This document shows positions 7,301-61,233 of a stretch of DNA of 64,000 nucleotides, piece after piece; the first letter of the stretch is position 1, and every line of letters starts with the position of its first letter. A program made the translations under genes and the position numbers. A model generated the notes under the pieces. It was not told the origin of the DNA, searched no databases, and saw only the letters and a program-made list of their open reading frames with translations. The stretch comes from a virus. The DNA lies in the IMG/VR virus record IMGVR_UViG_3300044632_001398, positions 10,302-74,301 of that record. One strand, given 5' to 3'.

Positions 7301-8586
7301 TGAATTTTCTTTTTGAGGATACAAATAGACTTTCTAATTTCACATCAAACAAAGATATAAACAAATCAGGTATACCAAGATTTGCAATATCACCTCTTTT
7401 TACATCAACACAAATATATGTTAATGCTAATGGTAAAAGTAAAGAATTTGGTATTTTTCCAGCAAGCGATGAATTAGATTCTTATGTAATAGCATCTTGT
7501 GTAAATCATAGTCCAGATGATTGGACTGGTTATGACCCAAAAGTTAAAAGTTTATTTAGTTATTTGAATGAAAAATATTTAAAAGATTTAAGAGAGAATA
7601 GAGCATTTTTAATGTTAGATCAAAGTCTCGAAGGATATCAAACACCTTGGTTATGGGATTGGTTTCATAGTGAATGTAAACAATGGGAAATTTCACCTAA
7701 AAGAATTATTTATGTTACCGGTAACATGATTGCCGATGATGTATATAAAAATTGGTGTAATGAAAATAGAATAGAAGAAAGAATGAAGGTTATACCATAC
7801 CCACATTTTGAATTAGATATGGGTATGACAACTTGGGGTAGGAATAAAGAAAATAGTGAGAATAAATTACCAAGTTTTTCTCAGAGTATTAATTACAAAA
7901 TTCAAAATCCACATCAGTTAAAAACATACGCATGTTTAAATAAACGAATCAGACCACATAGAGTTTGGTTTTATTATTATTTATATAATTCAGGTTTATT
8001 GAATGAAGGATTGGTTAGTATGAATGAGTTTGATAAACATTGGTATCATTGGGAAGGTAAATTTTTAGAAGATGGATTATTAGATGAATGCTCAAGTATA
8101 TTACCATTGTTAGTTTATGAAACTCCTAATAATGTTTTAGACGATAATATATACATCAATAGATTTCCTGAACAGGTTGTAAAGGACACATTTTTCACTG
8201 TTGTTAGTGAAGCTCATTGTGGTGATTCTGATAATACAATGTTTTTAAGTGAAAAAACTTTTAAGGTAATTGGTTGCCGTCACCCATTTTTAATTATGGG
8301 AAACAAAGATAGTATGTCAATGATGAGAAAAATTGGATACAAAACTTTTGATGGATTCATAGATGAAGGATTTGATATATTACCAACACATGAAAGATTA
8401 AATTCAATTATTGAATCAATTAGGAAAACAACAATGATTAAAGATAAGATTGAATGGTATAAATCTATGGAGGATGTTATTGAATATAACTATAGTACAT
8501 TGATTGATAAGTTATTTAGATATCCGGATGCGTTTATTGAAATGAGAGATTATTGTCAAATGACCACCAAACAGAAATTACTATAA
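7300..8586 (+). CDS. Putative GT-B/GT10-like glycosyltransferase, SEK..K..HPF family member 1
   Basis: CLNKRIRPHR, VVSE..FLSEKTFK..HPF..GYKTF..IDE motif shared with four other ORFs here. Confidence 0.5.
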   Translation: MNFLFEDTNRLSNFTSNKDINKSGIPRFAISPLFTSTQIYVNANGKSKEFGIFPASDELDSYVIASCVNHSPDDWTGYDPKVKSLFSYLNEKYLKDLRENRAFLMLDQSLEGYQTPWLWDWFHSECKQWEISPKRIIYVTGNMIADDVYKNWCNENRIEERMKVIPYPHFELDMGMTTWGRNKENSENKLPSFSQSINYKIQNPHQLKTYACLNKRIRPHRVWFYYYLYNSGLLNEGLVSMNEFDKHWYHWEGKFLEDGLLDECSSILPLLVYETPNNVLDDNIYINRFPEQVVKDTFFTVVSEAHCGDSDNTMFLSEKTFKVIGCRHPFLIMGNKDSMSMMRKIGYKTFDGFIDEGFDILPTHERLNSIIESIRKTTMIKDKIEWYKSMEDVIEYNYSTLIDKLFRYPDAFIEMRDYCQMTTKQKLL

Positions 8587-9971: not shown

Positions 9972-10519
9972 TATGATTCGTAATATAACTCAGGATATTC
10001 AACTATAACATGAATACCACCTAAAGAATATGCTGACTTATATATTGTTTCAATTTCATTGTAATTTTTTAAATCCCAAAATTTAGTATTAGGACACATG
10101 GATTTGAATTCATCAAAATAGTTTCCTCTATGTTGATGACCAGGGTCTAACGGTTTATCTGAACCTTTACCTAAACGAATAATCATATTAGGTGTCCATT
10201 CACCCTTACTCATTAAACCAATTTTGTCCACGTGGTTAACTAACTGATTTGTTGCACATATTACAAAATCCCAACGAGGGTAGAATGTAATAACAAATTT
10301 ACCGGCCATTGCCATACCTAATGACATACCCATTTGAGATTCTTCCATAACGGGAAGTTCAATTAATTTATCTTTAGGAACGTCTCCAATGGTTGTACTC
10401 ATAGGATTACCGTGCCAAAGGACTTGTTGACCTATAAAAACGGTGTTTTCTTGTTGCCCAAGGTAAGTCATTGAATTAGTCAATGCGTCCTTATATGGGG
10501 TGTATTGTGGTGAACTCAT
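9971..10519 (-). CDS. TPP enzyme beta subunit, pyrimidine-binding domain only (E1-beta/transketolase-like)
   Basis: IGQQV, ELPVMEESQMGMSLGMAMAG, NQLVNH, PGHQH; lacks the C-terminal domain. Confidence 0.8.
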   Translation of the reverse strand: MSSPQYTPYKDALTNSMTYLGQQENTVFIGQQVLWHGNPMSTTIGDVPKDKLIELPVMEESQMGMSLGMAMAGKFVITFYPRWDFVICATNQLVNHVDKIGLMSKGEWTPNMIIRLGKGSDKPLDPGHQHRGNYFDEFKSMCPNTKFWDLKNYNEIETIYKSAYSLGGIHVIVEYPELYYES

Positions 10520-12133: not shown

Positions 12134-13107
12134 TAATTAAATTCGTTTTTGTGTTGTAAATACCAATCGTAAGCTAATCTTAATCCGTTTTGAATAGTTG
12201 TCTTAGCTTCCCAACCTAAATTCTCTTTTATTTTATTTGAATCAATTTTACGAGTTGGAATCATAGACGGTTTTCCTTGAATGTATTCGGTTGGTACCTC
12301 ATGTTCTGCAATTGCTCTCATTATTTCTAAAACTTTATTTACTGAGTATACAGTGTTTGAACCAACATTATATGTTTGGAACATTTCAGTCTCATTTTCC
12401 ATCACCACTTGTAATGCCTCAACAAAGTCTTCAATGTATAGTAAATCTCTTAATTCGGAACCGTCACCCCACACTGGTATTGGGTCCATTTTATCAGCAA
12501 CCTTACGAATTGTTGCAGGAGTAACGTGACATTTGTTGAAATCATATTTATCGTGAGGGCCAAACAAATTCGCTGGTCTAATCACAGTACATTTCATTGT
12601 TCGTGGTAAGTATTTTGCATACAACTCACATTGAACCTCAGCATATCTCTTCATCCAACCAACAGGAAAATAAACAGGATATGGTTCATCAAATAAGAAA
12701 TCAGTCTCAACTACCGGTTCATCACCTTTAGGTGGATAAACAGTATTAGATGATATAAATACATAATGTTTAACTTCGTTTCTCCAAGCGGAATCAATTA
12801 AAAAATTATTCATTGCCACATTTGGAGTTACGTGAGCTAATGGATCAACTACTGTATCAACAGCATTTGATGTGGAGGCTGCTGCGTGAAATACAACATC
12901 TACATCTTTAGTTGCATTCATACAACCTTCATAGGTTTGTAAATCGTACTTACTATACTCAACACCATCGTAAGTGGTTCTTACACCTCTTTTATGAAGG
13001 TTTACTCTTAAATTGGTATAACCTTCTTTAATTAATCTTGCGGTTAAGTTTTGACCTACCAATCCCGAACCGCCGGTAATTAATATCTTTGAATTTTTGT
13101 CTATCAT
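12133..13107 (-). CDS. NAD(P)-dependent nucleotide-sugar epimerase/reductase (GDP-fucose synthase-like SDR)
   Basis: ITGGSGLVG, HAAA, RPANLFGPHD..HV.P, WGDGSELRD. Confidence 0.85.
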   Translation of the reverse strand: MIDKNSKILITGGSGLVGQNLTARLIKEGYTNLRVNLHKRGVRTTYDGVEYSKYDLQTYEGCMNATKDVDVVFHAAASTSNAVDTVVDPLAHVTPNVAMNNFLIDSAWRNEVKHYVFISSNTVYPPKGDEPVVETDFLFDEPYPVYFPVGWMKRYAEVQCELYAKYLPRTMKCTVIRPANLFGPHDKYDFNKCHVTPATIRKVADKMDPIPVWGDGSELRDLLYIEDFVEALQVVMENETEMFQTYNVGSNTVYSVNKVLEIMRAIAEHEVPTEYIQGKPSMIPTRKIDSNKIKENLGWEAKTTIQNGLRLAYDWYLQHKNEFN

Positions 13108-14804
13108 ATTATATTTTGTTTTTTTAAGTCTTCTAATCTATATTCCTCCTCAACTAATTTTTTATCGTGAACGAAATCAATATAAGTTAATCGTCTAAAA
13201 TCATTTTTTACCTTTTCCACCGAATGATCAGGATTATTTAAAGTGAAATCTAATAATGCAAAATTACCTAAAGTTGGTTTTACATAATTAACTTCATTAT
13301 TTTCATTAATTCTCAACTCCCCACCACCATTATTATAATCATTTTCGTCGGATAAGTAAATTAAAATAACACAATATCTTTTTCTATTTTCCCCATCATT
13401 GTGAGGTGTTATATGATCACCATTTTCATAAATTGTATATGCGTCTTGGTGATTGTAGTTACCTCTTAATATTGGATATATTTTACCTATGTAATCCTCA
13501 ATTACAAAACGAAGATAATCCCTACCTTTTTGTAAATCATCATTAAAATGTTTACTTTCCCACCATCTTTGTACCTCTAATCCTTCTTTTTCTTTTATAT
13601 AATTTTCTAATCCCGAAATTTCATCTGATGTGTAATGTAACTTTTTTTCCCAACTATCAATTTGATTTTTTTCGGCAATTAATTTATAATCAAATCTATA
13701 ACTAAAATTACTATTATCTTTAGTAGATTCTTTTATACCATTAAGAATCTCTTTAAACTTTTCCATATCGGGTATAAGTTCCTCAATTTTACCAAAGTAA
13801 TAACCACCGTTAGTTAAAAATTCTCTTACATTAAAATTAACACCTTCAATAGGAAATTGAGTTTTATAATAATAATATGTTTTAGCTAAACCTTCTTCAA
13901 AAGGTGTTGTAGGTAGTAAACCATATTTTTCTTGTTTTGTGGTATCCATTTGTCTTCTTAAATCACCATTAGGTTTTGATGTGTCCCATTTAATGGTAAT
14001 ATCCTTACCACTTATTTTTACTAACGATTCAATCATAGATTTAATTGTAATCTCAACACCCGAACCAAAATTAATTACATCATGTATACCATCTTCGTAC
14101 ATTTTTTTAATTGCAAATGCAACATCTTTTCCATAGACAAAGTCTCTAATTGAACTACCATCACCCCAAGACTCAATTGAATCAGTTGCTTCATGTATTT
14201 TCTTTATTGTTGAAGAAATTACAGTACCACTTCCACTATAATCATCGTAGTCACCATATATATTTGCAGGTCTAATAATGGACCATTTTTCATACCCATA
14301 TTGTACTTTATATGCCTCTAATAACATCTCGCCAACTCTTTTAGACCAAGACGGAAACCAATCATGTTCAGATGGTAAAGTATTCCAAACGGTATCTTCA
14401 ACAAACTTTTCGGCGGGTGAATAAACACCAACAGAACTCACAAAAACTAACCATATATCTTTTAATGCACATTGATTTATTATCTCAGTGTTAATTTTTA
14501 TTGATGGATATAAAAAATCCACTGGTTTAGTTTTTGCTTTAATTGGTGAACCTTTAATACCAAATGTATTAAATACGACATCAAAACTGTATTTTTCAAA
14601 TAATTTTTTAATTGAACCATCTACAGTTAAATCCATTTTTATAAACTCAAATCTATTTTTATATAGATTATTATAGTTAATTTCAGGTTCTTTTAAGTCA
14701 ATACCCACAACGAAATAATTAAAATTATCTCTTAATAATTCAGTTAATAGAAATGTACCAACTAAACCTGAACAACCCGTTAACAACACTGTTTTTCTCT
14801 CCAT
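13104..14804 (-). CDS. Nucleotide-sugar SDR fused to a C-terminal 2OG-Fe(II) oxygenase
   Basis: TGCSGLVG..RPANIYG..WGDGSSIRDF, then HNDG..LIYL..GGEL..HSV..R. Confidence 0.8.
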   Translation of the reverse strand: MERKTVLLTGCSGLVGTFLLTELLRDNFNYFVVGIDLKEPEINYNNLYKNRFEFIKMDLTVDGSIKKLFEKYSFDVVFNTFGIKGSPIKAKTKPVDFLYPSIKINTEIINQCALKDIWLVFVSSVGVYSPAEKFVEDTVWNTLPSEHDWFPSWSKRVGEMLLEAYKVQYGYEKWSIIRPANIYGDYDDYSGSGTVISSTIKKIHEATDSIESWGDGSSIRDFVYGKDVAFAIKKMYEDGIHDVINFGSGVEITIKSMIESLVKISGKDITIKWDTSKPNGDLRRQMDTTKQEKYGLLPTTPFEEGLAKTYYYYKTQFPIEGVNFNVREFLTNGGYYFGKIEELIPDMEKFKEILNGIKESTKDNSNFSYRFDYKLIAEKNQIDSWEKKLHYTSDEISGLENYIKEKEGLEVQRWWESKHFNDDLQKGRDYLRFVIEDYIGKIYPILRGNYNHQDAYTIYENGDHITPHNDGENRKRYCVILIYLSDENDYNNGGGELRINENNEVNYVKPTLGNFALLDFTLNNPDHSVEKVKNDFRRLTYIDFVHDKKLVEEEYRLEDLKKQNII

Positions 14805-14805
14805 T

Positions 14806-16548
14806 TTATATTATTTTTTTTTCTAAATTTAAATAGTCATCAATTTTAACATCAGTTAACGATTTGAAAAAGTTAACGTCATTTTTTGAATTATATATAT
14901 CAAAAACTTTCTGACGATTTTTATCAAATCTTTCTTTATTGTTTTTATAGAATTCCATAAAGAATTCTTTATTTTCATACATTCGTTTAATCTCCGTAAT
15001 AACTTTATGCATTCTAATACGATTATCTGGTTCATCGTCATAATCATGACTTATTATGTCATCAAACATATCAAATTTAAATCTATCTTTTAGATATTTT
15101 ACATGATTATATGAAGCCAAAAATATTGGGAATTGATAAAAGTAAAATGGTTTCATTGATTTTTCGGTGATATGTATTTCTTTGGGTGAATAACATGATT
15201 CGGTTGTTATATTAACATATGTATCCTCATATGTTTTACGAGCATACACTCTATTCCAAAAAATTTGAGCACCATCACTAGTATCGTCAAACCAAGTTCT
15301 ATTTTCTTCGTGTTTACTTTTTTTAATATCAATTTCAGTTAAGAATTTAATCTCATCTTTATATTCATTTTTTTCATCACCTATAAAAAATTCTGAATAG
15401 TAATTTTCATCTTCATGTCTTTTCTCCTGTTTATGATACCATCCCATAATTAAAGACCAATCTATGTGTTCTAAAATTCCATCTTTTTTTAACATACATA
15501 AAAAAGAATATCTATGAGGCTTTGGACTTCTATTGTGACATAAGAAAAATTCACCGTTTTTTTCGGGTACAAAATTAGGATCACCAAGTTCAACCATATG
15601 AGTTGATATGAACATAACCAAAAAATCCAAAGAATACATGTTATATAATATATTATGTTTTTGCTTATAATAATCTAATTTTGAATTATTATTTAACATA
15701 TGGATTCTCCTATAATCTAATCCTTCTTTTATTATTAATTTATTTAAGTATACTACATAATCTTCATATTCAAATTCGTGTTCATTTAACATTATAATAT
15801 GAAAATTTAAACATTTATTGAAACATTCTCTAACCTTAGGAGGTAAAGGTAACGTCTCAACTTCCATAACATGATGATGAAAATTATCGCTGTTAATAAA
15901 ATAAAAATAGTTCTCATTAGGATTTTCATAAACCTCATCCAAAACACAATTTCTTATATCATGAAAAAGATTATAGAATCTAAACAAACCAATCACAATT
16001 TTATATCTATAGTAATCTCTATGTGCTGGATATAAATTTGCGTGATAAGTGGTATAATCATCGGACCATCTATCATAGACAATGTTAAATGTTTTTTTAT
16101 CAAAAACCCTTAGTTGATTCAAATAATCTAATTTTAAATCATTTGGTTTTAAAATAATAACATTCTTAAACGAAATAAATAATTTATCATATACTTTTTT
16201 AAGAGATTCAACAACGTCATATTCATCAAGTAAAATAATTTTAAAATTACTGTCACTTCTAATTCTACCTCTTAAATGTTCGGTAAATGGATAATCTTTA
16301 TCCAATAAATTTTTATTCTCAAAACGACTCAAATCGTTAATATGTGTTAGAAAATAATAATAATTTTCATTTACATTTTCGGCATTGTCATCAACGTTAG
16401 ATTTTCTAATGTTTTCAACACCTGATAATTTAAGTAAATTTTGAACATATAAAAATCTCTCATCATCTGAAGGTTTTTTATTGTTCACGTAATGTGAATC
16501 ATCTAAATTATCTAAATTATCACAAATTATATTTAAAAAATAACCCAT
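14806..16548 (-). CDS. GT10-like family member 2, with duplicated N-terminal module
   Basis: LCHNRSPKPHR, NITTES..HITEKSMKPF..QFP. Start inferred at MGYFLN. Confidence 0.5.
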   Translation of the reverse strand: MGYFLNIICDNLDNLDDSHYVNNKKPSDDERFLYVQNLLKLSGVENIRKSNVDDNAENVNENYYYFLTHINDLSRFENKNLLDKDYPFTEHLRGRIRSDSNFKIILLDEYDVVESLKKVYDKLFISFKNVIILKPNDLKLDYLNQLRVFDKKTFNIVYDRWSDDYTTYHANLYPAHRDYYRYKIVIGLFRFYNLFHDIRNCVLDEVYENPNENYFYFINSDNFHHHVMEVETLPLPPKVRECFNKCLNFHIIMLNEHEFEYEDYVVYLNKLIIKEGLDYRRIHMLNNNSKLDYYKQKHNILYNMYSLDFLVMFISTHMVELGDPNFVPEKNGEFFLCHNRSPKPHRYSFLCMLKKDGILEHIDWSLIMGWYHKQEKRHEDENYYSEFFIGDEKNEYKDEIKFLTEIDIKKSKHEENRTWFDDTSDGAQIFWNRVYARKTYEDTYVNITTESCYSPKEIHITEKSMKPFYFYQFPIFLASYNHVKYLKDRFKFDMFDDIISHDYDDEPDNRIRMHKVITEIKRMYENKEFFMEFYKNNKERFDKNRQKVFDIYNSKNDVNFFKSLTDVKIDDYLNLEKKII

Positions 16549-29549: not shown

Positions 29550-29987
29550 ATGATATATTGGTTAACAGGACAACCTGCGGCAGGTAAAACAACATTGGCA
29601 ACTTGGATTCAATCAAGTTTCCCTAATAAGTCTATAATTGTGGATGGTGATGATATTAGAGAGATATTCGTAAATAAAGACTATTCAGAGGAAGGAAGGA
29701 AGAAAAACATTGAAAAGGCTCAGATTTTGGCTAAGTTCCTTCATCATAAGGGTTATATTGTTATAGTATCGTTAGTTTCACCATACAGAGATCAAAGGGA
29801 AGAGTTTAAAAACGAAATGGGGGAAAACCTAAGGGAAATCTATGTACATACCACCCAAGATAGAGGACGTAATCATTTTCACGTTGAGGGGTATGAACCA
29901 CCTTTGGAAAACTATTTTGACTGCGACACTACCGATAGTAGTGAATATCACACATTTTTAGAATTAAGAAGAAAATTAAATATATAA
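29550..29987 (+). CDS. cysC: Adenylyl-sulfate (APS) kinase, compact
   Basis: WLTGQPAAGKTT, DGDDIRE, DYSEEGR..N, VSLVSPY, YEPP. Confidence 0.8.
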   Translation: MIYWLTGQPAAGKTTLATWIQSSFPNKSIIVDGDDIREIFVNKDYSEEGRKKNIEKAQILAKFLHHKGYIVIVSLVSPYRDQREEFKNEMGENLREIYVHTTQDRGRNHFHVEGYEPPLENYFDCDTTDSSEYHTFLELRRKLNI

Positions 29988-29990
29988 TAT

Positions 29991-30353
29991 ATGAGTAAGA
30001 AATATGCGATGTATGTGGGTCGTTGGCAAAATTGGCATAAGGGTCACGAATGGTTAATTAACCAACAATTAGAAAAGGGTAAAGATGTGTGGGTAGCAAT
30101 TAGAAATGTTCCAACTGATGAAAATAACCCTAAAACTGCTCAAGAAGTGATGATGGAATTAGCGGGAGAACCGTTTTTTATGGAAAATTCACATAGAATT
30201 AACATATCTATTATACCGGACATTGAAAGTATAAATTATGGTCGTGGAGTGGGTTATGATGTTATTTATCATGAACCACCACCTGAGGTAGAAGTAATAA
30301 GTGGAACTAAAATCCGTAATGGGGAAATGAATTCAGATGGTAGTAGAGCGTAA
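29991..30353 (+). CDS. HxGH nucleotidyltransferase (cytidylyltransferase-like; candidate minimal ATP sulfurylase)
   Basis: GRWQNWHKGH, YGRGVGY, ISGTKIR. Confidence 0.7.
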   Translation: MSKKYAMYVGRWQNWHKGHEWLINQQLEKGKDVWVAIRNVPTDENNPKTAQEVMMELAGEPFFMENSHRINISIIPDIESINYGRGVGYDVIYHEPPPEVEVISGTKIRNGEMNSDGSRA

Positions 30354-30552
30354 ACGACATATAGCTAAAACCATTTCATATCGTATTGTAAGTACCCTAA
30401 TTGGGTTCATTATAATGTGGTGGGTAAGTGGATCGATTAAGGTTGGGGCGGCATTTGGGGTAGCGGAATTGATATATAAACCCATTCAATACTATCTACA
30501 CGAAAGAATTTGGTATAAATGGATAAAATTTGGACTAAAAGATAAAAAATAA
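30337..30552 (+). CDS. DUF2061-like small membrane protein
   Basis: RHIAKTISYR..YYLHERIW..I.FG. Confidence 0.8.
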   Translation: MVVERKRHIAKTISYRIVSTLIGFIIMWWVSGSIKVGAAFGVAELIYKPIQYYLHERIWYKWIKFGLKDKK

Positions 30553-30579: not shown

Positions 30580-32028
30580 ATGAAATCAGTATTAATTGCA
30601 AGTGATTTAATCAAAGATTTAAATGGTAATATAAAAGTAATTGAAACGAACACAAACGCGTCAGTATCTATAAATTGGAATTTATATGATTTTGCAAATT
30701 TGCAAGATTTTATCCAATCTAATAATTTTACAGAAGTTAATGGTATCGTTCCTCAAGTGGATAAACCATTTTCGGCTAAAATAAAAGAAATATGTGATTC
30801 AATTGGGATAACCTACGTTGAACATATAACAGTTAATGGTTCGATAACCGTTCCATTTATTGAAGATAATGAATCTACATTAATTATTAGACTTTCATAT
30901 GACACCACTGCAGTAGTGGACGACCAATATTGTAGAGACAAATTTGCATTACAAAAAGTAATTCACAATGAATCATTTGGTGTAAAAACATATATTCCGG
31001 TAGAAGTGGATGGAGTTACAATAGATGATTTTACCGAAATGGAAGACTTTGTTTATACTAACGACATACCAAATTTTATTGTAAAAAGTAGATATCCAAA
31101 TTATGATAAAGAAGTATATCCAAAGTTATACAAAGTAGAAAATTTAACACAATTAAATGAATTAAAATCTACAATTGAATCGGATTATTATTTACAAGAA
31201 TTTATTCAATCGGAATTAATAGATGGTAGAAGAAACATTATTAGAAGTTTAGATTTATTATATGGTTCTAATTTGGATACATTAAATATAGGTGGTTATA
31301 CTGTTTTAAACCAAATTGAAGAAACAATATGGAATAATACATGGGATGAGAATAATATGTTGGCCAAAAAAGATAGGCCAAAATATATAACACATACGGC
31401 AGGACATGACGATTCTTCACATGAATATGTTTATGATGTTGATCAGGATGTTGCAATGATGGATGGTAGTAGAAAAACATTTTATTCATTAATATTAGGT
31501 GATTCAATTAAATCATTACACATTCAAGGATTGGACTTAGATGAAAGTACATATCAATTACAATCATGGACTGGTACTTATTCGGATTTTATTGAAAATT
31601 TCAGTATTATATCCTCAGCTGTTGTTGCTACCAGAGAATCTCAACCCGTATCTCAATTATTTATTAAAATAACAATGGATGATGGAACTGAGTGGGATGA
31701 TGTAAAACTTTCACCATTATTGGTTAAGGATGGTGATGTTATTAAATTTAAAAGAGTAAATGATATGGCTATTGGTGATGTTATTATCACATATAATTTT
31801 GAATCATCGGAAGTAGAATTAAAAACCATTCAAAATATGGAAATTATATTTAAAGAAAACCAAATATTGGGTTCTTTAGATGTTGAACCGGTGGATTTGT
31901 ATCTACCTTTTGTATCTGCAAATTCAACAGTAATTCAACACAATCGATGCACCAAGGGATGTGCAAGTAATGCCTGTTTCGATTCTTTTGCATGTGGTAA
32001 TTGTAGTTTTTACGTTTGTAATAAATAA
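30580..32028 (+). CDS. Circularly permuted ATP-grasp-like domain + Hint domain + 27-aa Cys-rich C-terminal peptide
   Basis: SD..KD.NG.IKVIETNT near the N-terminus, FIVKSRYP, YLQEFI; Hint-like blocks VAMMDGSRK..LILGD, ITMDDG, NDMAIGD, LDVEP..IQHN; then RCTKGCASNACFDSFACGNCSFYVCNK. Confidence 0.7.
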   Translation: MKSVLIASDLIKDLNGNIKVIETNTNASVSINWNLYDFANLQDFIQSNNFTEVNGIVPQVDKPFSAKIKEICDSIGITYVEHITVNGSITVPFIEDNESTLIIRLSYDTTAVVDDQYCRDKFALQKVIHNESFGVKTYIPVEVDGVTIDDFTEMEDFVYTNDIPNFIVKSRYPNYDKEVYPKLYKVENLTQLNELKSTIESDYYLQEFIQSELIDGRRNIIRSLDLLYGSNLDTLNIGGYTVLNQIEETIWNNTWDENNMLAKKDRPKYITHTAGHDDSSHEYVYDVDQDVAMMDGSRKTFYSLILGDSIKSLHIQGLDLDESTYQLQSWTGTYSDFIENFSIISSAVVATRESQPVSQLFIKITMDDGTEWDDVKLSPLLVKDGDVIKFKRVNDMAIGDVIITYNFESSEVELKTIQNMEIIFKENQILGSLDVEPVDLYLPFVSANSTVIQHNRCTKGCASNACFDSFACGNCSFYVCNK

Positions 32029-32204: not shown

Positions 32205-32504
32205 ATGCCAATAGACGTAAAAGAAATTACCAAAGCTTGGATAGATTCTTACTTTGGAACAATCGAACAAAAAAACAGAGCAAACGATAGAAATGAAATC
32301 TGTCAACAATGCCCATCTTTAAAAGAATTTTTTAAACAACGCAAAAACATTTCCGTTCAACAATGTGGTGAATGTGGGTGTCCTATTTCTAAAAAAATAT
32401 GGTCATATAAATTTAATCCTTGCCCATTAGGTAAATGGGAAGATGTTGATAAAAAACACAAAAATCTATTTGATACTGAATTGAAAACTAAAAATACGAT
32501 TTAA
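32205..32504 (+). CDS. Small Cys-cluster (metal-binding) protein, DUF6171-like
   Basis: R..ICQQCP..CGECGC..K..CPLGKW. Confidence 0.7.
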   Translation: MPIDVKEITKAWIDSYFGTIEQKNRANDRNEICQQCPSLKEFFKQRKNISVQQCGECGCPISKKIWSYKFNPCPLGKWEDVDKKHKNLFDTELKTKNTI

Positions 32505-32870
32505 ATGAATGTTATAAATACAAACCCAAAACTATATATTAAATACATCGATAATATAAAGGGATTTGGTGTTTTTACTAATCAAAAAATTAAAAAGGGT
32601 GAATTAATTGAACAATGTTATTCCCTTTGTATTGATACTACGGTTAAAGGGTTTGATGCATATTGGTTTAGGTATAGAGGAGATAGTACATTGTTACCAC
32701 TTGGATTTGGTACGATTTATAATCATAGTAATACTCCAAATACTATATGGAAAATTATTGATGAAAACAAAAGAATTATAAACTTTTATGCAATTGATGA
32801 TATTGATATAGATTGTGAACTTTGTCATAATTACGGACCAGGGTATTTAAAACATATCCAATTAATATGA
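32505..32870 (+). CDS. SET-domain lysine methyltransferase
   Basis: KGFGVF..IKKGELI, IYNHSNTPN, A..DI..ELCHNYG. Confidence 0.85.
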   Translation: MNVINTNPKLYIKYIDNIKGFGVFTNQKIKKGELIEQCYSLCIDTTVKGFDAYWFRYRGDSTLLPLGFGTIYNHSNTPNTIWKIIDENKRIINFYAIDDIDIDCELCHNYGPGYLKHIQLI

Positions 32871-33400
32871 TTTATCAAAAAAAAATATTTTCTAAAGAGG
32901 AATGTGATATAATATTACAATTATCTGACACATTGGAATTTAGAGATGGAAAAACTAGATATAGTAAAGATAATATGCATGCCGACTTTGATGAATACTG
33001 GGTTTCGGATAATGAAAATGCTATATGGTTTATGGATAGAATAAAAGTGTTTGCCGAAAAAGAATTAAAAGTAAAATTAAAAAAGTTAAAATCCGATGTT
33101 GCAATTCTAAAATATAAAGAAGGACAGGGTATTGATATGCATATAGATTATAATCCCAAAAATGTGGATGTTAGAATGTATACTGTTGGTGTAATGCTGA
33201 ATACCGAATGGGAAGGAGGTGAATTTTTTATAAAGGATGTATCTAATGGAGAAGAAACGATGCTAATCAAAGAAATAGGAAATACATATATTTTTGATGC
33301 ATTTTCTCCTCATATAGTTAATAAAGTAACAAAGGGAGTAAGATGTGTATTGATTACTCATATATTAAATTCAGAAATTAAAAAAACAGATTTAATATGA
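32867..33400 (+). CDS. 2OG-Fe(II) oxygenase (P4H-like)
   Basis: FSKEEC, KY..G..HID, LN..EGGEF, H.V..V..G.R. Confidence 0.85.
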   Translation: MIYQKKIFSKEECDIILQLSDTLEFRDGKTRYSKDNMHADFDEYWVSDNENAIWFMDRIKVFAEKELKVKLKKLKSDVAILKYKEGQGIDMHIDYNPKNVDVRMYTVGVMLNTEWEGGEFFIKDVSNGEETMLIKEIGNTYIFDAFSPHIVNKVTKGVRCVLITHILNSEIKKTDLI

Positions 33401-33984
33401 TTTATCAAGAAAAAATATTTTCTAAAGAGGAATGTGAAAGAATATTATCATATACCAACATATATACTGATTTAGTGTTTAGAAGTAAAGAACCAAATAT
33501 TGATTTTGAAAAAAGAAGGGTAGAGCATATTACAAAACACACTAATGGTAAAAATATCGGAAAATTTTTTAATGTTTGGGATATTCGTCATGATGAAGAA
33601 ACACATTGGATGTTTGAAAAAATAATAAAATGGTTTTCTAATGTTTCAAAAATAGAACACAATTCAGATGGGTGGCCTGGCGGTTGTTCATTACATAAAT
33701 ACTCAAAGGGGGACTCATTTCAAAAACATATAGATTTAAATCAATCTTTCCCAGATAGAAGATGGAATTTAGGTATTCAATTAAACGACTCATATACTGG
33801 TGGTGAATATATATGTTATGATAATAACGATAATAAGATAATATTAAGTAAAGAAATTGGAACAGCAATAGCTTATAATTCTACAACTGAACATGAAATA
33901 ACGGAAATATTATCTGGTGAAAGGTGGTCTATTGTAATGCCAATAAGTAATAAAGTAATTTTAGAAAAAAAATCAATAATATGA
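33397..33984 (+). CDS. 2OG-Fe(II) oxygenase (P4H-like)
   Basis: FSKEEC, KY.KGD.F.KHID, LN..YTGGE, HEI..GERWS. Confidence 0.85.
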   Translation: MIYQEKIFSKEECERILSYTNIYTDLVFRSKEPNIDFEKRRVEHITKHTNGKNIGKFFNVWDIRHDEETHWMFEKIIKWFSNVSKIEHNSDGWPGGCSLHKYSKGDSFQKHIDLNQSFPDRRWNLGIQLNDSYTGGEYICYDNNDNKIILSKEIGTAIAYNSTTEHEITEILSGERWSIVMPISNKVILEKKSII

Positions 33985-34604
33985 TTTTAGAAAAAATAGA
34001 AATAGATAAAAATATTATTGTATATAAAGGAATAGTTGGTTTATTTGAATCCTTTAATAGAGAAGAATTTATTAAAAAAATAAAATATATTCAACATTTA
34101 TATCCGGATTTTACTAATTCTATGAATGAAAAATCACCTGGTAAACAATATCCAATTTTAGTAAATTTAGAAGAGACTAATTTTATTATTAATAAAGTAA
34201 AAACATCATTAAAAAATGAAATAAATACTCCAAGTGAATGTGTTATAAACAGTTGGGTTTATGTTAGTAGTAATAAAAATAAATATTCAGGATATCATTC
34301 ACATGAAAGTACAGGAGTACATCAAAATAATAAAACCGTTATGTTTGATACATCACACACATTCACATATTATGTTCAAATGCCAAATAATTTAAAAAAT
34401 GATGATGGATATTTATACTTTAAAACAAAAGATGGTACGGAATTTGGATTTTTACCAAAAGAAGATGAGGTTTGGATATTCCCAGGAGATTTAGAACATG
34501 ATGTTAAAACCAATACATCATCTACAAATGAAAGAATTGTAATTGCAAGTAATATGCATTTTTTTGATTATAATGATATTAAATTAGAAAAAAGTATATT
34601 ATAA
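33981..34604 (+). CDS. Putative 2OG-Fe(II) oxygenase (HxH type)
   Basis: SWV..YHSH..YYVQMP..G.L.F..IFPGDLEH..ERI.IA.N. Confidence 0.75.
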   Translation: MILEKIEIDKNIIVYKGIVGLFESFNREEFIKKIKYIQHLYPDFTNSMNEKSPGKQYPILVNLEETNFIINKVKTSLKNEINTPSECVINSWVYVSSNKNKYSGYHSHESTGVHQNNKTVMFDTSHTFTYYVQMPNNLKNDDGYLYFKTKDGTEFGFLPKEDEVWIFPGDLEHDVKTNTSSTNERIVIASNMHFFDYNDIKLEKSIL

Positions 34605-35323
34605 TGTCTATTTTAATAAATAATAACTTAATATGGGTATCTATACCAAGAAATGCAAGTCATTCTATTGAAAAGGCTATTGTAAATTCGGATGTAGAGA
34701 TAAAACATTGGAATAGATTGTATACAACAGAAAGTATTTTTAATAGAAATTGGTTGCATCAACATGTAAATAAAAACCAATTACAAATTGCATTTGGTAA
34801 TAAAGAAACGTTTTGTATAAAAAGAGATTTCAGTAATAGATGGATATCTTCACTGGAACACTTTTGGGATGTGTGTATTAAACACCACAAATTAACTCCT
34901 ATTATTAACTATGAAGACATAGATAATGATTTTATATACAATACTTTTAATACTACATTCAGTAATATTTTATATAATGATAATACGGGATTAATAAAAT
35001 GTACATCAATGTTAGTAAAACAATCTATGGAAGATGTATTAAATAATAATACTAGGTATGAGACTCAAAGACTTTCACACATTTTTGCATCACAAAATAA
35101 ATATTTAGATGGGGAAAAATGTACATATGAATTTGACATAAAAGAATTGGATAAATTTAAAACATTTTATGAAAATAGATATGATGTAAAAATAGATATA
35201 CCTCATGAAAATGTATCACCAAAAAAAATAAATAAAATAATATTAGATGATGATTTAAAAAATCATTTATGGGAAGTGTTTGAAAAACCATTTGCAAAAG
35301 ATAAAAAATATAATTTATTATAA
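34604..35323 (+). CDS. Sulfotransferase family 2-like protein
   Basis: WVSIPRNASHS (5'-PSB), H, KRD..RWISS (3'-PB), SQ..Y, H.N.S. Confidence 0.7.
   Translation: MSILINNNLIWVSIPRNASHSIEKAIVNSDVEIKHWNRLYTTESIFNRNWLHQHVNKNQLQIAFGNKETFCIKRDFSNRWISSLEHFWDVCIKHHKLTPIINYEDIDNDFIYNTFNTTFSNILYNDNTGLIKCTSMLVKQSMEDVLNNNTRYETQRLSHIFASQNKYLDGEKCTYEFDIKELDKFKTFYENRYDVKIDIPHENVSPKKINKIILDDDLKNHLWEVFEKPFAKDKKYNLL
35255..35311 (+). repeat. 57-bp direct repeat, copy 1 (copy 2 at 36574-36630)
   Basis: TTAAAAAATCATTTATGGGAAGT[G/A]TTTGAAAAACCATTTGCAAAAGATAAAAAATAT, 1 mismatch. Confidence 0.9.
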
Positions 35324-35352
35324 TACCCCCACCAACAACACAACTAAAATAA

Positions 35353-35925
35353 ATGTTATTTAATAATTTTTACAAAACAACCTACGATTTTAATTGGGAA
35401 GTATTAGAACCCATTTTAGAAAAAATGGTCAGTATAAAAAATCAAGACTATTTAGAAAAGGGTGATGTATTAACTTCTTTTAAAAATAAAATAAGTCCAT
35501 TAAATTTACCTGAACTTAAAGACTTTTATAGTTTTATATCACCAATTTATAGTGATGTATTAATTAATAAATGGAACTATCCAAAAGAAAATGAATATTT
35601 TATTAGTAATTCTTGGGTATCAAAATATGGAAATGGTGGTTTTATTGAAGAACACAATCATACCAACGTAATTGCAGTAATATGTGCATATTTACAAATT
35701 CCTGAAAATTCATCAAATATTTTATTTAGAGATCCAAATTATGATACAAAAATAAAATTATCAACAAAGGATGATAATTGGTTATGGAAAGAAATAGAAT
35801 CCAAAACAAACGAAATACTTATATTTGAAGGTGGGTGTTATCATAAAACTAATCCAAATAATAGTTTAATTCCTCGTTGGGTATTAACTACAAATATAAC
35901 AAAAAAAAATAAAAGTATAATATGA
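35353..35925 (+). CDS. Putative 2OG-Fe(II) oxygenase (TIGR02466-like)
   Basis: SWVSKY..GG..HNH..YL..P..FRDP..IF..H.T.PN..R..N. Confidence 0.8.
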   Translation: MLFNNFYKTTYDFNWEVLEPILEKMVSIKNQDYLEKGDVLTSFKNKISPLNLPELKDFYSFISPIYSDVLINKWNYPKENEYFISNSWVSKYGNGGFIEEHNHTNVIAVICAYLQIPENSSNILFRDPNYDTKIKLSTKDDNWLWKEIESKTNEILIFEGGCYHKTNPNNSLIPRWVLTTNITKKNKSII

Positions 35926-35947
35926 AATTAAACAAAATAAACACACT

Positions 35948-36571
35948 ATGAAAGGGAATGAACAAATAGAGGTTTTTGAAGAAAAAATTGAAATTCAAAA
36001 TACAAAAAACGATGGTAACAATGTCATTATGCACATTGGTGAAAAATATTTAATGACTAAACTTGCAGAAATTGTTACAAAAAACGGAGGTGACATATTA
36101 GAAATTGGATTTGGAATGCATTTATCTGCCGATGCTATACAATCAAATCCAAATGTGACATCACATACCATAATAGAAATTCATCCGGTTCAATATGAAA
36201 GAGCATTAGAATGGGCAAAGTTACAAAAAATAAAAACAACAGTTATATTAGGTGATTGGATTGAATTATTACCATTGACTAATATGAAGTTTGATGGAGT
36301 ATTACATGATACACATTTAGACCCGAATATACCTAAATTTTTAGATTATATAGTAGATAATTGTAAAAAAGGTACAATTGTGGGTTTTTTTGAATATCAA
36401 AAATTTGATTTAAGATTTAATGGATATAGAGTTACTATACCAAAAGAAGACTGGGAAACTATTCCATATAAAAATAACATATATTACAAAGATAATCAGC
36501 CTGAATTAAAATATACTACATTTAATGGTGATGATTTTTATAGTGAAAAAAAAATAAATAAACTATTATGA
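35948..36571 (+). CDS. Class I SAM methyltransferase, GAMT/Rmt2-like
   Basis: E..LM..LA..V..GGDILEIGFGM..S..I..HTIIE.HP..GDW..FDG..DT. Confidence 0.8.
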   Translation: MKGNEQIEVFEEKIEIQNTKNDGNNVIMHIGEKYLMTKLAEIVTKNGGDILEIGFGMHLSADAIQSNPNVTSHTIIEIHPVQYERALEWAKLQKIKTTVILGDWIELLPLTNMKFDGVLHDTHLDPNIPKFLDYIVDNCKKGTIVGFFEYQKFDLRFNGYRVTIPKEDWETIPYKNNIYYKDNQPELKYTTFNGDDFYSEKKINKLL

Positions 36572-36639
36572 TTTTAAAAAATCATTTATGGGAAGTATTT
36601 GAAAAACCATTTGCAAAAGATAAAAAATATTTAATTTAA
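36568..36639 (+). pseudogene. Minigene or deletion remnant carrying the C-terminus of a sulfotransferase paralog
   Basis: MILKNHLWEVFEKPFAKDKKYLI versus the end of 34604..35323 (LKNHLWEVFEKPFAKDKKYNLL). Confidence 0.65.
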
Positions 36640-36640
36640 A

Positions 36641-37207
36641 ATGGTAATCACTATTATCGCAGAACCAAGAACTGGGTCAACTAATTTAGGTAAATGGTTT
36701 CTGAACAATAAAGAATTCACAGTATTATTTGAACCATTAAATAAAACTAGTACAAATTATAAAAAAGGTGAATCAGTTTATCAATGGAAATATAATACTA
36801 ATCATTTTTTAATTAAGGAAATATATACACCAGATATATGTTTAACAGAATTGATACAATTTTCAGATAAAATCATAATACTTTATAGAGAAAATAAAAA
36901 AGAACAATTGGAATCTTGGTTAGTTGCCAGAGAAACCAATAATTGGCATGTAAAATGGAGTCATAATATGACAAGTGTGACAAATGGTAAAGAAAAAATA
37001 AAATATTTTAATTCACTAACAAATACATTCAAATTAAATTATATAAATAATCCTAATTATTTTAAAATTTCATATGAAGAATTATATTATAGTAATGGAT
37101 TTCAAAAAATAATAGATTATATAAATTTAGATTGTGTAAAAAATGAAAATTTTCCACAAGGTCAAAAATATAGAATATATGATAGTAAAACAACAAGTAT
37201 TATTTAG
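36641..37207 (+). CDS. Sulfotransferase-like P-loop protein
   Basis: IIAEPRTGST, FEP, LYREN..EQLES, ISYEELY. Confidence 0.75.
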   Translation: MVITIIAEPRTGSTNLGKWFLNNKEFTVLFEPLNKTSTNYKKGESVYQWKYNTNHFLIKEIYTPDICLTELIQFSDKIIILYRENKKEQLESWLVARETNNWHVKWSHNMTSVTNGKEKIKYFNSLTNTFKLNYINNPNYFKISYEELYYSNGFQKIIDYINLDCVKNENFPQGQKYRIYDSKTTSII

Positions 37208-37676
37208 TAAAGAAGAATGTGAATTGATTATAACTCTACCAAAAACAAATCAACAATATTGGGAATCAAAGGATAGAAGTTATAATTCACTTGTACTGCA
37301 GTATAACGAAAATACAGAGTGGATATTTAATAGATTGAAAAATTTTTTTGAATTAGAAACGGAAATAAAGATTTTTAAATTAAAACCATACATACATTTT
37401 CATAAATATGTAAGTGGGGATTGGTTTGGTAGACATAACGATATTAGAGGTGACAGAATTTCTGCAGTGGGTGTGTTACTGAATGATGATTTTAATGGTG
37501 GAGATTTCAAATTATACAATCCAACAGAAGTGATTTTAAATAAAGTGGTTGGAAACACATACATATTTGATGTTACAATTGACCACGAAATAACACCAAT
37601 TTTAAATGGTGAGAGATATTCATTACTTTGGTTTTTAGAAAGAGACAATATTAAATTTAATAATAAATTGATATAA
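37179..37676 (+). CDS. 2OG-Fe(II) oxygenase (P4H-like)
   Basis: FSKEEC, HKY..GD.F..HND, LNDDFNGGDF, HEITP..GERYS. Start inferred at ATG 37179. Confidence 0.85.
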   Translation: MIVKQQVLFSKEECELIITLPKTNQQYWESKDRSYNSLVLQYNENTEWIFNRLKNFFELETEIKIFKLKPYIHFHKYVSGDWFGRHNDIRGDRISAVGVLLNDDFNGGDFKLYNPTEVILNKVVGNTYIFDVTIDHEITPILNGERYSLLWFLERDNIKFNNKLI

Positions 37677-37677
37677 A

Positions 37678-38193
37678 ATGGATGATATTATACAATATAA
37701 AATAACTAAAGAAAAATTCATTAAAATTGAACATAAATCTCATTATAAATTAAAATATGTAGATTTAAATAATTATTTAGATTATACCGAAGATTTTAAT
37801 ATAATAATAGATTTATTGCATAAACAATTAAAATGGGACGGTATACCAACATTGGAAGAATGTTATCAAAGATTTAATTCTAATTCATTTTGTTTATTGT
37901 TTTATTATAATGAAAAATGTATAGGTTGGAATTGGGGTAATCCAAATGTAACTATTAATTGGATTGACATTGATAAAAAATTAAATAATAATGAATTGTA
38001 TTTAGGTGGATGTTTTGTTTCTAAATTAGTTGAAAGACCGGCAGACGCTGGTATTCAAAATTATAATATGTTTTTTGATTATTGTTTAAATATTTTAAAT
38101 CCAAATGTAATGTATGGATATTGTGACAATTGGAATAAGGCTGCAATAAGAATCAATATAAGTAATGGATGGGAACAGTTTAATTTTTTATAA
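37678..38193 (+). CDS. GNAT-like acetyltransferase
   Basis: CIGWNW..LYLGGCFV..R..G..YCDNWNKAAIR..GW. Confidence 0.6.
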   Translation: MDDIIQYKITKEKFIKIEHKSHYKLKYVDLNNYLDYTEDFNIIIDLLHKQLKWDGIPTLEECYQRFNSNSFCLLFYYNEKCIGWNWGNPNVTINWIDIDKKLNNNELYLGGCFVSKLVERPADAGIQNYNMFFDYCLNILNPNVMYGYCDNWNKAAIRINISNGWEQFNFL

Positions 38194-58436: not shown

Positions 58437-59534
58437 ATGGATATGTTTAATATTTTAAAAAAATATGTTTGTACCATGCCTTTCAAATATACAGACATAC
58501 AAACCAACGGACAATTTGTGTGCTGCCCATCTTGGAATGGAAAAAATATAAATTCGAACGGATTAACAAATTTGAGTGAAAATTGGAAAAATACCATATC
58601 AATTGATATTAGAAAATCGGTAATGGATGGTACATATGAATATTGTAACAAAACGGTTTGTCCAAAATTAAATGAATTAATTAACACTAATTCAGTACCT
58701 AAAGAATTTTTAGAAATTAATACTTTTAAAACGAAATATAAAATAAATTCAACTGAAGATTTGGTTAATTTTACAAAATCTCCCGAAGAAATTTTATTTG
58801 GATTTGATAAAAGTTGTAATCTAAAGTGTCCTTCTTGTCGAGTGAATTTAATACCAAATGACGACATCAATTCAACATATAACGAATTGAAAATGAACAT
58901 TTTAAAATCAATTGAAAATGATTATGGTGGAGAATTAAAAAAAATAATGATAACAGGTAGTGGTGACCCAATTTACTCTAAAATTTATAGAGACTACTTA
59001 ATAAATTTTGATAAAACAAAATATCCAAAATTACAAAAAATTCATTTAATAACAAATGGAAATTTATTAGATGAAAAAATGTGGAATAGTTTTAAGGCCA
59101 AAGAATTTATTAAAATTATTGAAATAAGTATTGATGCCGCAACTAAAGAAACATATGAAAACTCAACAAGATTAAATGGTAACTGGAATAGATTAATTAA
59201 TAATTTAAAATATCTATCAACACAAAATACAATAGATGAATTTTATTTCTCAATGGTAGTTAGTAAAAATAATTACAAAGAAATGGAAATGTTCTATAAT
59301 TTAATTATCGGGATATTCGGTAAATCAAAATTCAAATATGGATATACAATAGTTTATAGACAATTAGTTGATTGGAACACATATTTACCAACCGAATTAA
59401 AAGAATTACAAGTTTTTGAAAAGGGTCATGAATTATATGATGATTTTGTAATTGAATTAGAAAAAATAAATAACAAAAAAAATGTAAATCATAATTTTAA
59501 TCATATATCTAAAATGAAAAAGTCTTTAATATAA
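58437..59534 (+). CDS. Radical SAM enzyme with N-terminal SPASM/twitch domain
   Basis: CTMPF..CCPSW..W..R..C..CP; CNLKCPSC; GSGDP; TNG; SIDA. Confidence 0.9.
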   Translation: MDMFNILKKYVCTMPFKYTDIQTNGQFVCCPSWNGKNINSNGLTNLSENWKNTISIDIRKSVMDGTYEYCNKTVCPKLNELINTNSVPKEFLEINTFKTKYKINSTEDLVNFTKSPEEILFGFDKSCNLKCPSCRVNLIPNDDINSTYNELKMNILKSIENDYGGELKKIMITGSGDPIYSKIYRDYLINFDKTKYPKLQKIHLITNGNLLDEKMWNSFKAKEFIKIIEISIDAATKETYENSTRLNGNWNRLINNLKYLSTQNTIDEFYFSMVVSKNNYKEMEMFYNLIIGIFGKSKFKYGYTIVYRQLVDWNTYLPTELKELQVFEKGHELYDDFVIELEKINNKKNVNHNFNHISKMKKSLI

Positions 59535-60594: not shown

Positions 60595-61233
60595 ATGAGT
60601 AGAGTATGGACATTTGGAGATAGTTTAACCGAAGGTTTTAAATCAACTGATTTTTGGGCGAGAACTTATGTAAAATGGAAAGGATATGTTCCGTTAACAC
60701 ACGGAGAAATTATTGCAAATAAATTTGGATATGAAATAATAAATTTAGGTAGAGGTGGGTCAGATAATTATACTATTTTTGAAACGTTTTGTGAAAATAT
60801 TGAAAAATTTGAAAAAAACGACATTGTAATAATTGGTTGGTCTGATGTTAATAGATTCAGATTACATAATAGAAACGGTAATTGGACATCAATCTTACCA
60901 AATTTTACAAATGACATTAAAAATATTAATAACATAAGTCAAAATACAATTGATGAAATTTTAATTAATAGAAGTTCGGATGTTTATGTTAATGAGGTTA
61001 ATAATTGGTTAAATGTTATTAAAAAATCTTTAATAGACGTAAAGTTTATTAGTTGGTCAAGGTTTAACAAAGGGAAGATAAAAGGTTTATATATCAATGA
61101 AAAGATTGATTTAATTTATAGGGAAACTAAAGGTGAGATAAAAGACTATCATTTTAGTGAATTGGGTCAAAAAACGGTTGCGGAAATATTAATAAATGCG
61201 ATTGGTGATAAATCAAAACAAAAATTTATATAA
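60595..61233 (+). CDS. SGNH-like protein
   Basis: FGDSLT, NLGRGGSDN, IGWS..RF, DYHFS..G. Confidence 0.65.
   Translation: MSRVWTFGDSLTEGFKSTDFWARTYVKWKGYVPLTHGEIIANKFGYEIINLGRGGSDNYTIFETFCENIEKFEKNDIVIIGWSDVNRFRLHNRNGNWTSILPNFTNDIKNINNISQNTIDEILINRSSDVYVNEVNNWLNVIKKSLIDVKFISWSRFNKGKIKGLYINEKIDLIYRETKGEIKDYHFSELGQKTVAEILINAIGDKSKQKFI

Follow-up and report, generated by a model that had tools for sequence, protein, structure and literature searches.

C-terminal endings shared by a run of unrelated enzymes

What could lead consecutive genes for enzymes of different folds to end in nearly the same few residues? The question is raised by a 64-kb stretch of DNA (hereafter the window; positions 10,302 to 74,301 of IMG/VR record IMGVR_UViG_3300044632_001398) that lies within one 74.3-kb virus record, has a GC content of 28% and carries tail-fiber-like genes alongside numerous sugar and tailoring enzymes. 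A preliminary description, made from the sequence alone, had noted that nine consecutive genes between positions 32505 and 37676 end in a Lys-containing stretch followed by two aliphatic residues, and had offered a docking or targeting signal, a degradation signal, or an artefact of A-rich gene junctions as explanations. Here, the shared ending was followed through related viral loci and large protein collections. The ending is real and under selection; this C-terminal short linear motif, called the tag below, is probably an address label that is read by one shared partner. The run of tagged genes begins directly 3' of the gene for a 482-aa protein (30580..32028, + strand; hereafter the anchor) and of a small Cys-rich open reading frame (ORF). 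ORFs were called by a simple longest-ORF rule, which leaves stops unaffected and may have misplaced some starts.

All nine C-termini listed in the preliminary description were exact on ORF translation. In order along the + strand they belong to a SET-domain protein (32505..32870, KHIQLI; Pfam SET, E 2.7e-10), two 2-oxoglutarate (2OG)-Fe(II) oxygenases of the Oxy_3 family (32867..33400, KKTDLI; 33397..33984, EKKSII), an Oxy_5-like 2OG-Fe(II) oxygenase (33981..34604, LEKSIL), a sulfotransferase-like protein (34604..35323, KKYNLL), an Oxy_5 2OG-Fe(II) oxygenase (35353..35925, KNKSII), an S-adenosylmethionine (SAM) methyltransferase-like protein with a weak match to Pfam Methyltransf_25 (35948..36571, KINKLL), a second sulfotransferase-like protein (36641..37207, KTTSII) and a third Oxy_3 oxygenase (37179..37676, with an alternative start at 37143; FNNKLI), all five oxygenases being recognized by Pfam. 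The statement that all nine are enzymes has to be softened for two of them, as 34604..35323 and 36641..37207 gave no Pfam match and their sulfotransferase identification comes from weak family-profile hits (heparan sulfate 2-O-sulfotransferase, E 0.002, for the former; NodH, E 0.023, and CurM sulfotransferase, E 0.16, for the latter). These assignments are consistent with the presence of an adenosine 5'-phosphosulfate (APS) kinase gene just upstream. The similar endings reported elsewhere in the window (TKQKLL at 8586, KKQNII at 13104, EKKII at 14806, MKKSLI at 59534 and KQKFI at 61233) were also read correctly.

Between 32505 and 38193, nine consecutive ORFs carry two aliphatic end residues, or ten under a looser rule; the last ORF of this interval (37678..38193, + strand), a 171-aa protein of unassigned family that ends in NFL, is tagged under the clade-wide rule, which accepts Phe at position -2. 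Across the whole 74.3-kb contig, 16 of 83 ORFs end in [IL][IL], a pair found at a rate of 2.4% inside proteins and 6.0% before out-of-frame stops, and the probability of nine tagged genes out of nine is ~3e-15 under the first of these null rates and ~1e-11 under the second. By sequence, the nine proteins represent 6-7 families (there are three Oxy_3 and two Oxy_5-like paralogues) and are not fully independent. Moreover, the junctions at 32870 and 33400 are copies of one duplicated 56-nt segment (32862-32917 and 33392-33447, 95% identical), which indicates that the tandem 2OG paralogues were duplicated along with the last 8 nt of the upstream gene (TTAATATGA) and that two of the nine tags share their DNA by descent.

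The tag is a property of particular protein families

The first viral-contig scan, for which 34604..35323 was the query, returned nine syntenic loci at ~40% identity, and nearly all cluster genes in these loci end in two aliphatic residues that are encoded by varied codons. Alignment queries built on the 482-aa upstream protein (A1) and on divergent 2OG homologues (A2) added 26 and 77 loci, respectively; a viral-contig scan with a single anchor sequence found no match, and the matches to the anchor came with the alignment query. A nucleotide search of a phage collection with the cluster likewise gave no match. In the relatives, runs of up to ~18 genes around the homologue of the 482-aa protein end in KTLI, KSLI, NSLI, NKLI, KNII, KTLL, KSFI and similar sequences, while the remaining genes of the same contigs lack such ends. 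The 103 related viral loci comprise 2162 ORFs (1486 distinct), which were clustered into 417 families; many of these contigs are fragments, and co-occurrence with the anchor is therefore not provable on complete genomes.

Families with at least five members were distributed bimodally, with 29 of them tagged in 0-10% of members and 16 in 80-100%. In 18 tagged families the tag was found in 428 of 452 distinct proteins (~95%). These include the 2OG oxygenases (Oxy_3, 151/161; Oxy_5, 31/34; Oxy_4, 6/6), the two sulfotransferase-like families to which 34604..35323 (43/43) and 36641..37207 (46/46) belong, radical SAM proteins (29/29), B12-binding radical SAM proteins (5/6), SAM methyltransferases (14/14), SET-domain proteins (10/10) and flavin-dependent Trp halogenases (7/7; Pfam E 5e-94), as well as a small Cys-rich protein (39/43) and several families without a Pfam match. 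A tagged tryptophan halogenase of this kind is encoded at L012:7106-8314 in a related locus and is absent from the window. Interleaved with the tagged families in the same operons are others that are untagged, namely APS kinase (1/23), a 120-aa HxGH protein (0/40), DUF2061 (1/33), carbamoyltransferase (1/22) and the anchor itself (1/52). The label thus draws a line between enzyme types with peptide or protein substrates and those that make small-molecule cofactors.

Over the 452 proteins of the 18 families, the consensus is K (53%) or N (17%) at -4; T (25%), S (22%), K (21%) or N (13%) at -3; L (69%), I (17%) or F (8%) at -2; and I (61%) or L (29%) at -1. Neither -4 nor -3 is part of the tag definition, and both differ between tagged and other families (K/N at -4, 66% vs 25%; S/T at -3, 46% vs 14%). 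The position of Lys is not fixed among the copies in the window; clade-wide, K or N stands at -4 and S, T, K or N at -3. The tag as such was correctly recognized in the preliminary description, and the pattern given for it, Lys-x-x-(L/I)-(L/I), is looser than the actual K/N-[STKN]-[LIF]-[IL]-COOH. In the viral loci examined, the motif is always placed exactly at the C-terminus.

The same ending persists over large evolutionary distances. A pair of hydrophobic residues stands at the end of 108 of the 112 homologues of the oxygenase 33397..33984 from a collection of 5.8 billion proteins (identity as low as 37%), and likewise of 116 of the 120 best homologues of the tagged Trp halogenase (as low as 42%); I, L, F, V and M replace one another at these ends. 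The preliminary description had proposed looking at homologues with different neighbors, and here the radical SAM protein 58437..59534 (+ strand; Pfam Radical_SAM, ending MKKSLI) is informative: it keeps KSLI at a distance of 26 kb from the anchor, and its orthologues in relatives adjoin the anchor, indicating that the tag belongs to the protein and not to the neighborhood. The AlphaFold2 model of 33397..33984 has a mean predicted local distance difference test (pLDDT) score of 95, with a fold that ends at about residue 184 and a pLDDT of 57 over the last five residues; in this model the C-terminus is exposed and flexible. Other tagged enzymes have tails of 10-15 residues past the end of their Pfam domain.

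Composition and gene overlap do not account for the tag

Gene ends in this genome are AT-enriched (GC of 16% in the last 6 nt vs 29% overall) and the commonest last residues genome-wide are I, L and K, so that an artefact of composition required serious testing. Gap length, codon usage and DNA signals were analyzed for 157 distinct tagged proteins. The frequency of the tag did not depend on the distance between its stop and the next start (37% for overlapping genes, 36% for gaps of 0-15 nt, 28% for 16-40 nt and 40% for 41-100 nt). Leu at -2 is encoded by TTA, TTG, CTA and CTT in 68, 13, 12 and 7% of cases, close to the genomic 63, 15, 9 and 10%, and the DNA past the stop is silent, with a relative entropy of at most 0.24 bit and information at background immediately downstream. 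Lys, Asn and Tyr, whose codons also can consist of A and T only, are excluded from -1 and -2. Codons for Ser and Thr, the residues enriched at -3, contain G or C.

A by-product of stop/start overlap or of ribosome-binding sites is ruled out by the independence from gap length, and a signal at the DNA level (promoter, terminator, recombination site or the like) by the unbiased Leu codons and by the lack of signal beyond the stop. AT-richness alone fails on the residues excluded from the last two positions and on the enrichment of S/T at -3, and pure paralogy on the existence of at least 18 tagged sequence families from different Pfam superfamilies. The artefact alternative raised in the preliminary description, A-rich initiation regions combined with stop/start overlap, is thereby rejected, and neither overlap nor AT content explains the tag.

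An acidic Hint protein is associated with the tagged genes

The tagged genes cluster around the anchor. In the surroundings of 51 distinct anchors, the tag is carried by 78-92% of genes at positions +1 to +4 and by 51% of those at -1, with values falling to ~20-30% at about 13 genes away. Conversely, in loci retrieved with the tagged 2OG family, all contigs that extend far enough contain an anchor, save a single one.

AlphaFold2 modeled the 482-aa anchor in three parts (mean pLDDT 85): an N-domain, a Hint domain and a Cys-rich tail that is disordered. The Hint domain (residues 280-458) matched BIL2, inteins and Hedgehog with Z 17 and was also recognized by sequence (E 1.6e-4). For the N-domain, Foldseek returned YgiC/YjfC, glutathione synthetase and glutathionylspermidine (Gsp) synthetase with E-values of 3e-6 to 4e-5 and low template modeling (TM) scores of 0.28-0.36, which suggests an ATP-grasp-like fold. 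A search of the ESM Atlas gave weak leads, below 0.9, to ATP-grasp, tubulin tyrosine ligase (TTL) and GshA clusters. Pfam searches with the N-domain, run singly and with all 40 members, returned noise only, and in a sequence profile search of the Protein Data Bank (PDB) the Hint part alone was matched, with no match to an ATP-grasp family. E22-x-N24, R104, K169 and R222 are invariant in 40-44 anchor homologues of ~30% identity and are putative Mg/ATP-binding residues, judging from sequence conservation. Past an invariant His-Asn, the Cys-rich C-terminus differs from homologue to homologue. The anchor is strongly acidic (median isoelectric point 4.5, median net charge -33), in contrast to the basic tails that bear the tag (net charge +1.7). 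The N-domain family comprises 401 clusters at 50% identity, and the domain always occupies the N-terminus, the whole proteins being 460-1000 aa long; no anchor homologues were found in cellular genomes. One homologue (L094:4103-6817), at 904 aa, has three Hint modules by Pfam and may release several peptides.

If the tags of unrelated families were all read by a single co-evolving partner, they would be expected to shift in concert between lineages. With tags permuted within families, so that family was controlled for, the use of Phe in the last two residues differed by lineage (chi-square 111 vs 36 +/- 9; 0/5000 permutations), as did the choice of Leu or Ile at -1 (P = 2e-4). In the Phe-rich lineages L036 and L090, Phe occurs in four unrelated families each, with no general excess of Phe. 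As evidence for a single reader, these concerted shifts are suggestive rather than strong.

A docking motif for peptide-tailoring enzymes as the favored explanation

We propose that tailoring enzymes are brought to the anchor, an ATP-grasp-like/Hint/Cys-peptide protein resembling a precursor, by the tag acting as a docking motif. This remains tentative, and we give it a probability of about 0.45. Enzymes with many unrelated folds, all acting on peptides or proteins, would have acquired K/N-[S/T/K/N]-[L/I/F]-[I/L]-COOH after a Lys-rich flexible tail, and the motif together with its free carboxylate would be read by one common partner, most likely the acidic anchor encoded next door (30580..32028). 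Through docking, the enzymes would be kept at the precursor during modification of the presumed substrate, its variable Cys-rich C-terminal peptide, which the Hint domain would afterward cut off. Such a scheme would invert the leader logic of peptides that are synthesized ribosomally and modified post-translationally (RiPPs), with the address placed on the enzymes and a large "leader protein" reading it.

Docking would explain which families are tagged, why enzymes of cofactor supply are untagged and why a small, non-enzymatic Cys-rich protein is tagged, and it would also explain the clustering around the anchor, the concerted lineage shifts and the complementarity of charge. The scaffold docking suggested in the preliminary description is supported to the extent that the signal is selected at the protein level and points to a common partner, for which 30580..32028 fits best and may serve as reader, substrate or both; the LamG proteins, also named there as possible readers, found no support.

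Several points weigh against this proposal. One 126-kb contig, estimated to be 65% complete, has three tagged genes and no anchor in its available part. Counted on the anchor tree, the lineage shifts reflect few independent events (~2-3 for Phe and ~3 for Leu), and a host protein as reader would explain them equally well, so that the shifts cannot separate a phage reader from a host reader. It is by genomic association that the anchor is a candidate reader, and its conserved, catalytic-looking residues may mean that a peptide-carboxylate site in this protein is busy with chemistry instead of docking. A four-residue motif would confer modest affinity only, and ten or more enzymes seem many for a target peptide of ~27 residues.

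The possible chemistry of the N-domain leads to the main rival explanation, an unlikely one, in which the tag is a substrate handle for an ATP-grasp ligase in the anchor. The C-terminal carboxylate of each enzyme would be activated as an acyl phosphate and ligated to an amine, which could be an amino acid, a polyamine or the N-terminus of the Cys-rich peptide once the Hint domain has released it, leaving the enzymes covalently modified at their ends. The predicted structural neighbors of the N-domain suit such a role, as both glutathione synthetase and Gsp synthetase activate short peptides at their C-terminal carboxylate, and the ATP-grasp enzymes RimK, TTL and LysX work on the C-termini of proteins; the invariant putative Mg/ATP residues and the strictly C-terminal position of the motif are also in line with it. 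Ligation, however, offers no reason why peptide-modifying enzymes should be selected and those supplying 3'-phosphoadenosine 5'-phosphosulfate (PAPS) left out, the reaction would be single-turnover if the peptide derived from the anchor itself, and the ATP-grasp assignment stands on Foldseek E-values with low TM scores and has no counterpart in Pfam or PDB sequence searches. In its most specific form, the anchor would join the C-termini of tagged enzymes to the hypervariable Cys-rich peptide just released by its Hint domain. We regard such virus-encoded protein-peptide ligation as improbable; if true, one fast-evolving peptide would be stamped onto a dozen enzymes, as a viral counterpart of ubiquitin- or Pup-type tagging.

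There is a similarly small chance that the tag is a degradation or remodeling signal for host ClpXP, ClpAP, Lon or a C-terminal processing protease, which would limit how long potentially promiscuous protein-modifying enzymes persist. A basic stretch followed by a hydrophobic C-terminus resembles the MuA-type motif recognized by ClpX, non-polar C-termini destabilize proteins in E. coli, the modeled tail is exposed and flexible, and the concerted shifts could mirror different hosts. Yet the tag is confined to specific families clustered around the anchor and is absent from other enzymes of the same operons, it is also carried by the non-enzymatic Cys-rich protein, and the clusters showed no gene for a protease or adaptor.

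An address for a compartment or the virion, by which enzymes would be loaded into the capsid or another phage-built structure much as encapsulin cargo peptides do, would likewise account for a short C-terminal extension common to unrelated enzymes. We consider it very improbable, as the neighbor that tracks with the tag is an ATP-grasp-like/Hint protein and not a shell or portal gene, and as the enzymes need soluble cofactors (2OG, SAM, PAPS and FAD) that would be scarce inside a capsid. Least credible is an origin of the tag as a side effect of high AT content at gene ends, of ATGA stop/start overlaps or of duplicated junction DNA, to which the low GC of the last 6 nt, the commonness of terminal I, L and K and the one duplicated 56-nt segment would lend themselves, and against which stand gap independence, unbiased Leu codons, silence past the stop, the bimodality of families with untagged genes in the same operons, and the residue choices at -1, -2 and -3.

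Under the docking proposal, a four-residue C-terminal label of a phage would mark which enzymes belong to one pathway. At least eight enzyme superfamilies carry the tag, and in public metagenomes it extends over hundreds of protein clusters. Should the anchor be the reader, this would be a new solution to the problem of how unrelated enzymes find one substrate, and it would provide a compact and portable recruitment tag for engineering. For annotation, the tag predicts pathway membership of proteins without recognizable domains, among them 37678..38193 and several families that have no known function.

Comparison with known terminal signals

Shared terminal address peptides are known from encapsulins, microcompartments, peroxisomes and PDZ scaffolds; to our knowledge, they are not known as the organizing principle of a peptide-tailoring pathway, and a literature search turned up no account of either the tag or the anchor fusion. 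The closest formal likeness is to class I PDZ ligands (X-[S/T]-X-hydrophobic-COOH), which are also four-residue motifs, placed at the extreme C-terminus and ending in a hydrophobic residue, and in which, as here, the free carboxylate is probably part of the epitope. With families weighted equally, the last residue is hydrophobic in 96% of tagged-family members, and nothing follows it. The tag differs in its strongly hydrophobic penultimate residue, mostly Leu, and in that the Ser/Thr position, third from the end, is about as often K or N (Ser/Thr in 46% of tagged-family members, K or N in ~35%; Ser/Thr in 4/9 in the window). No PDZ domain was matched by Pfam in the anchor and ~45 cluster proteins, a scan that covered phage proteins only.

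Encapsulin cargo-loading peptides and those of bacterial microcompartments (BMCs) share with the tag that unrelated folds bear a short terminal extension and that their genes adjoin the gene of the reader, here a presumed one. The tag differs from them in sequence and length (K-[ST]-L-I vs a GSL-type consensus), and the neighbor here is an ATP-grasp-like/Hint/peptide fusion instead of an HK97-fold or BMC shell protein.

In RiPP pathways, which use leader peptides and RiPP recognition elements (RREs), and in the C-terminal docking motifs of nonribosomal peptide synthetases and polyketide synthases, a short handle also unites several tailoring enzymes with one substrate. Enzyme types typical of RiPP pathways are present here (radical SAM, B12-radical SAM, 2OG oxygenase, methyltransferase and halogenase), and, as in a RiPP-type cluster, a presumed precursor with a variable core adjoins genes for radical SAM, B12-radical SAM, 2OG, SET, methyltransferase and halogenase proteins. 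In contrast to RiPP leaders, the polarity is reversed, with the handle on the enzymes, and the presumed precursor is ~480 aa long with a self-cleaving Hint domain of its own. Pfam found no RRE/PqqD-like domain on the tagged enzymes scanned, a search that could miss distant RREs.

MuA-type (C-motif 2) ClpX signals and ssrA-like, non-polar degrons resemble the tag, as far as its residues go, in that phage or transposon proteins end in basic and then hydrophobic residues at the very C-terminus, and differ from it in that the tag is family-specific and tied to one gene neighborhood. The ATP-grasp ligases (glutathione synthetase, Gsp synthetase, RimK and TTL) are comparable in that the modeled anchor N-domain resembles the fold of glutathione synthetase and Gsp synthetase and in that a conserved C-terminus is common to the proteins encoded next to the anchor. 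Unlike them, the anchor has no sequence-level match to any ATP-grasp family, and we know of no fusion to a Hint domain and Cys-rich peptide in glutathione synthetase, Gsp synthetase, RimK or TTL.

Neighboring genes and further observations

The small Cys-rich protein between the anchor and the first of the nine genes (32205..32504, + strand) has a weak DUF6171-like match and a degenerate end of its own, KNTI; its family is 91% tagged. Upstream of the anchor, three untagged genes of the same operon occupy 29550..30552 (+ strand) and encode the APS kinase (ending KLNI), the 120-aa HxGH protein (GSRA) and the DUF2061 protein (KDKK). This untagged trio is conserved and adjoins the anchor in many relatives. 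The HxGH protein is possibly a minimal nucleotidyltransferase resembling sulfate adenylyltransferase, and the trio together with the sulfotransferase-like genes suggests that the phage encodes a PAPS supply.

On the - strand, 13104..14804 encodes an NAD-dependent epimerase/dehydratase joined to a C-terminal 2OG-FeII_Oxy_3 domain and ends in KKQNII, so that a tagged oxygenase domain is found on a sugar enzyme. In the 126-kb relative mentioned above, the only match in a search for an anchor was L113:811-2472 (- strand), which encodes a 553-aa Ser/Thr-rich LamG-like protein that has a Hint-like insert and is unrelated to the anchor N-domain.

In 37143-37207, the start of the last of the nine genes is most likely at 37179 (MIVKQQVLFSKEEC, as in its paralogues) and not at 37143. 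The gene starting there overlaps the 3' end of 36641..37207 by 29 nt, so that the TSII tag codons of the upstream gene fall within the N-terminal codons of the next.

Finally, a 58-nt direct repeat with 98% identity links 35254-35311 and 36573-36630. The sequence is the 3' end of 34604..35323, and its second copy lies just past the stop of 35948..36571. Between the two copies lies a cassette of two genes, for the Oxy_5 2OG oxygenase and the methyltransferase, an arrangement suggestive of recent insertion or recombination. The remnant makes up an ORF of 23 codons (36568..36639), in which KKYLI still precedes the stop.

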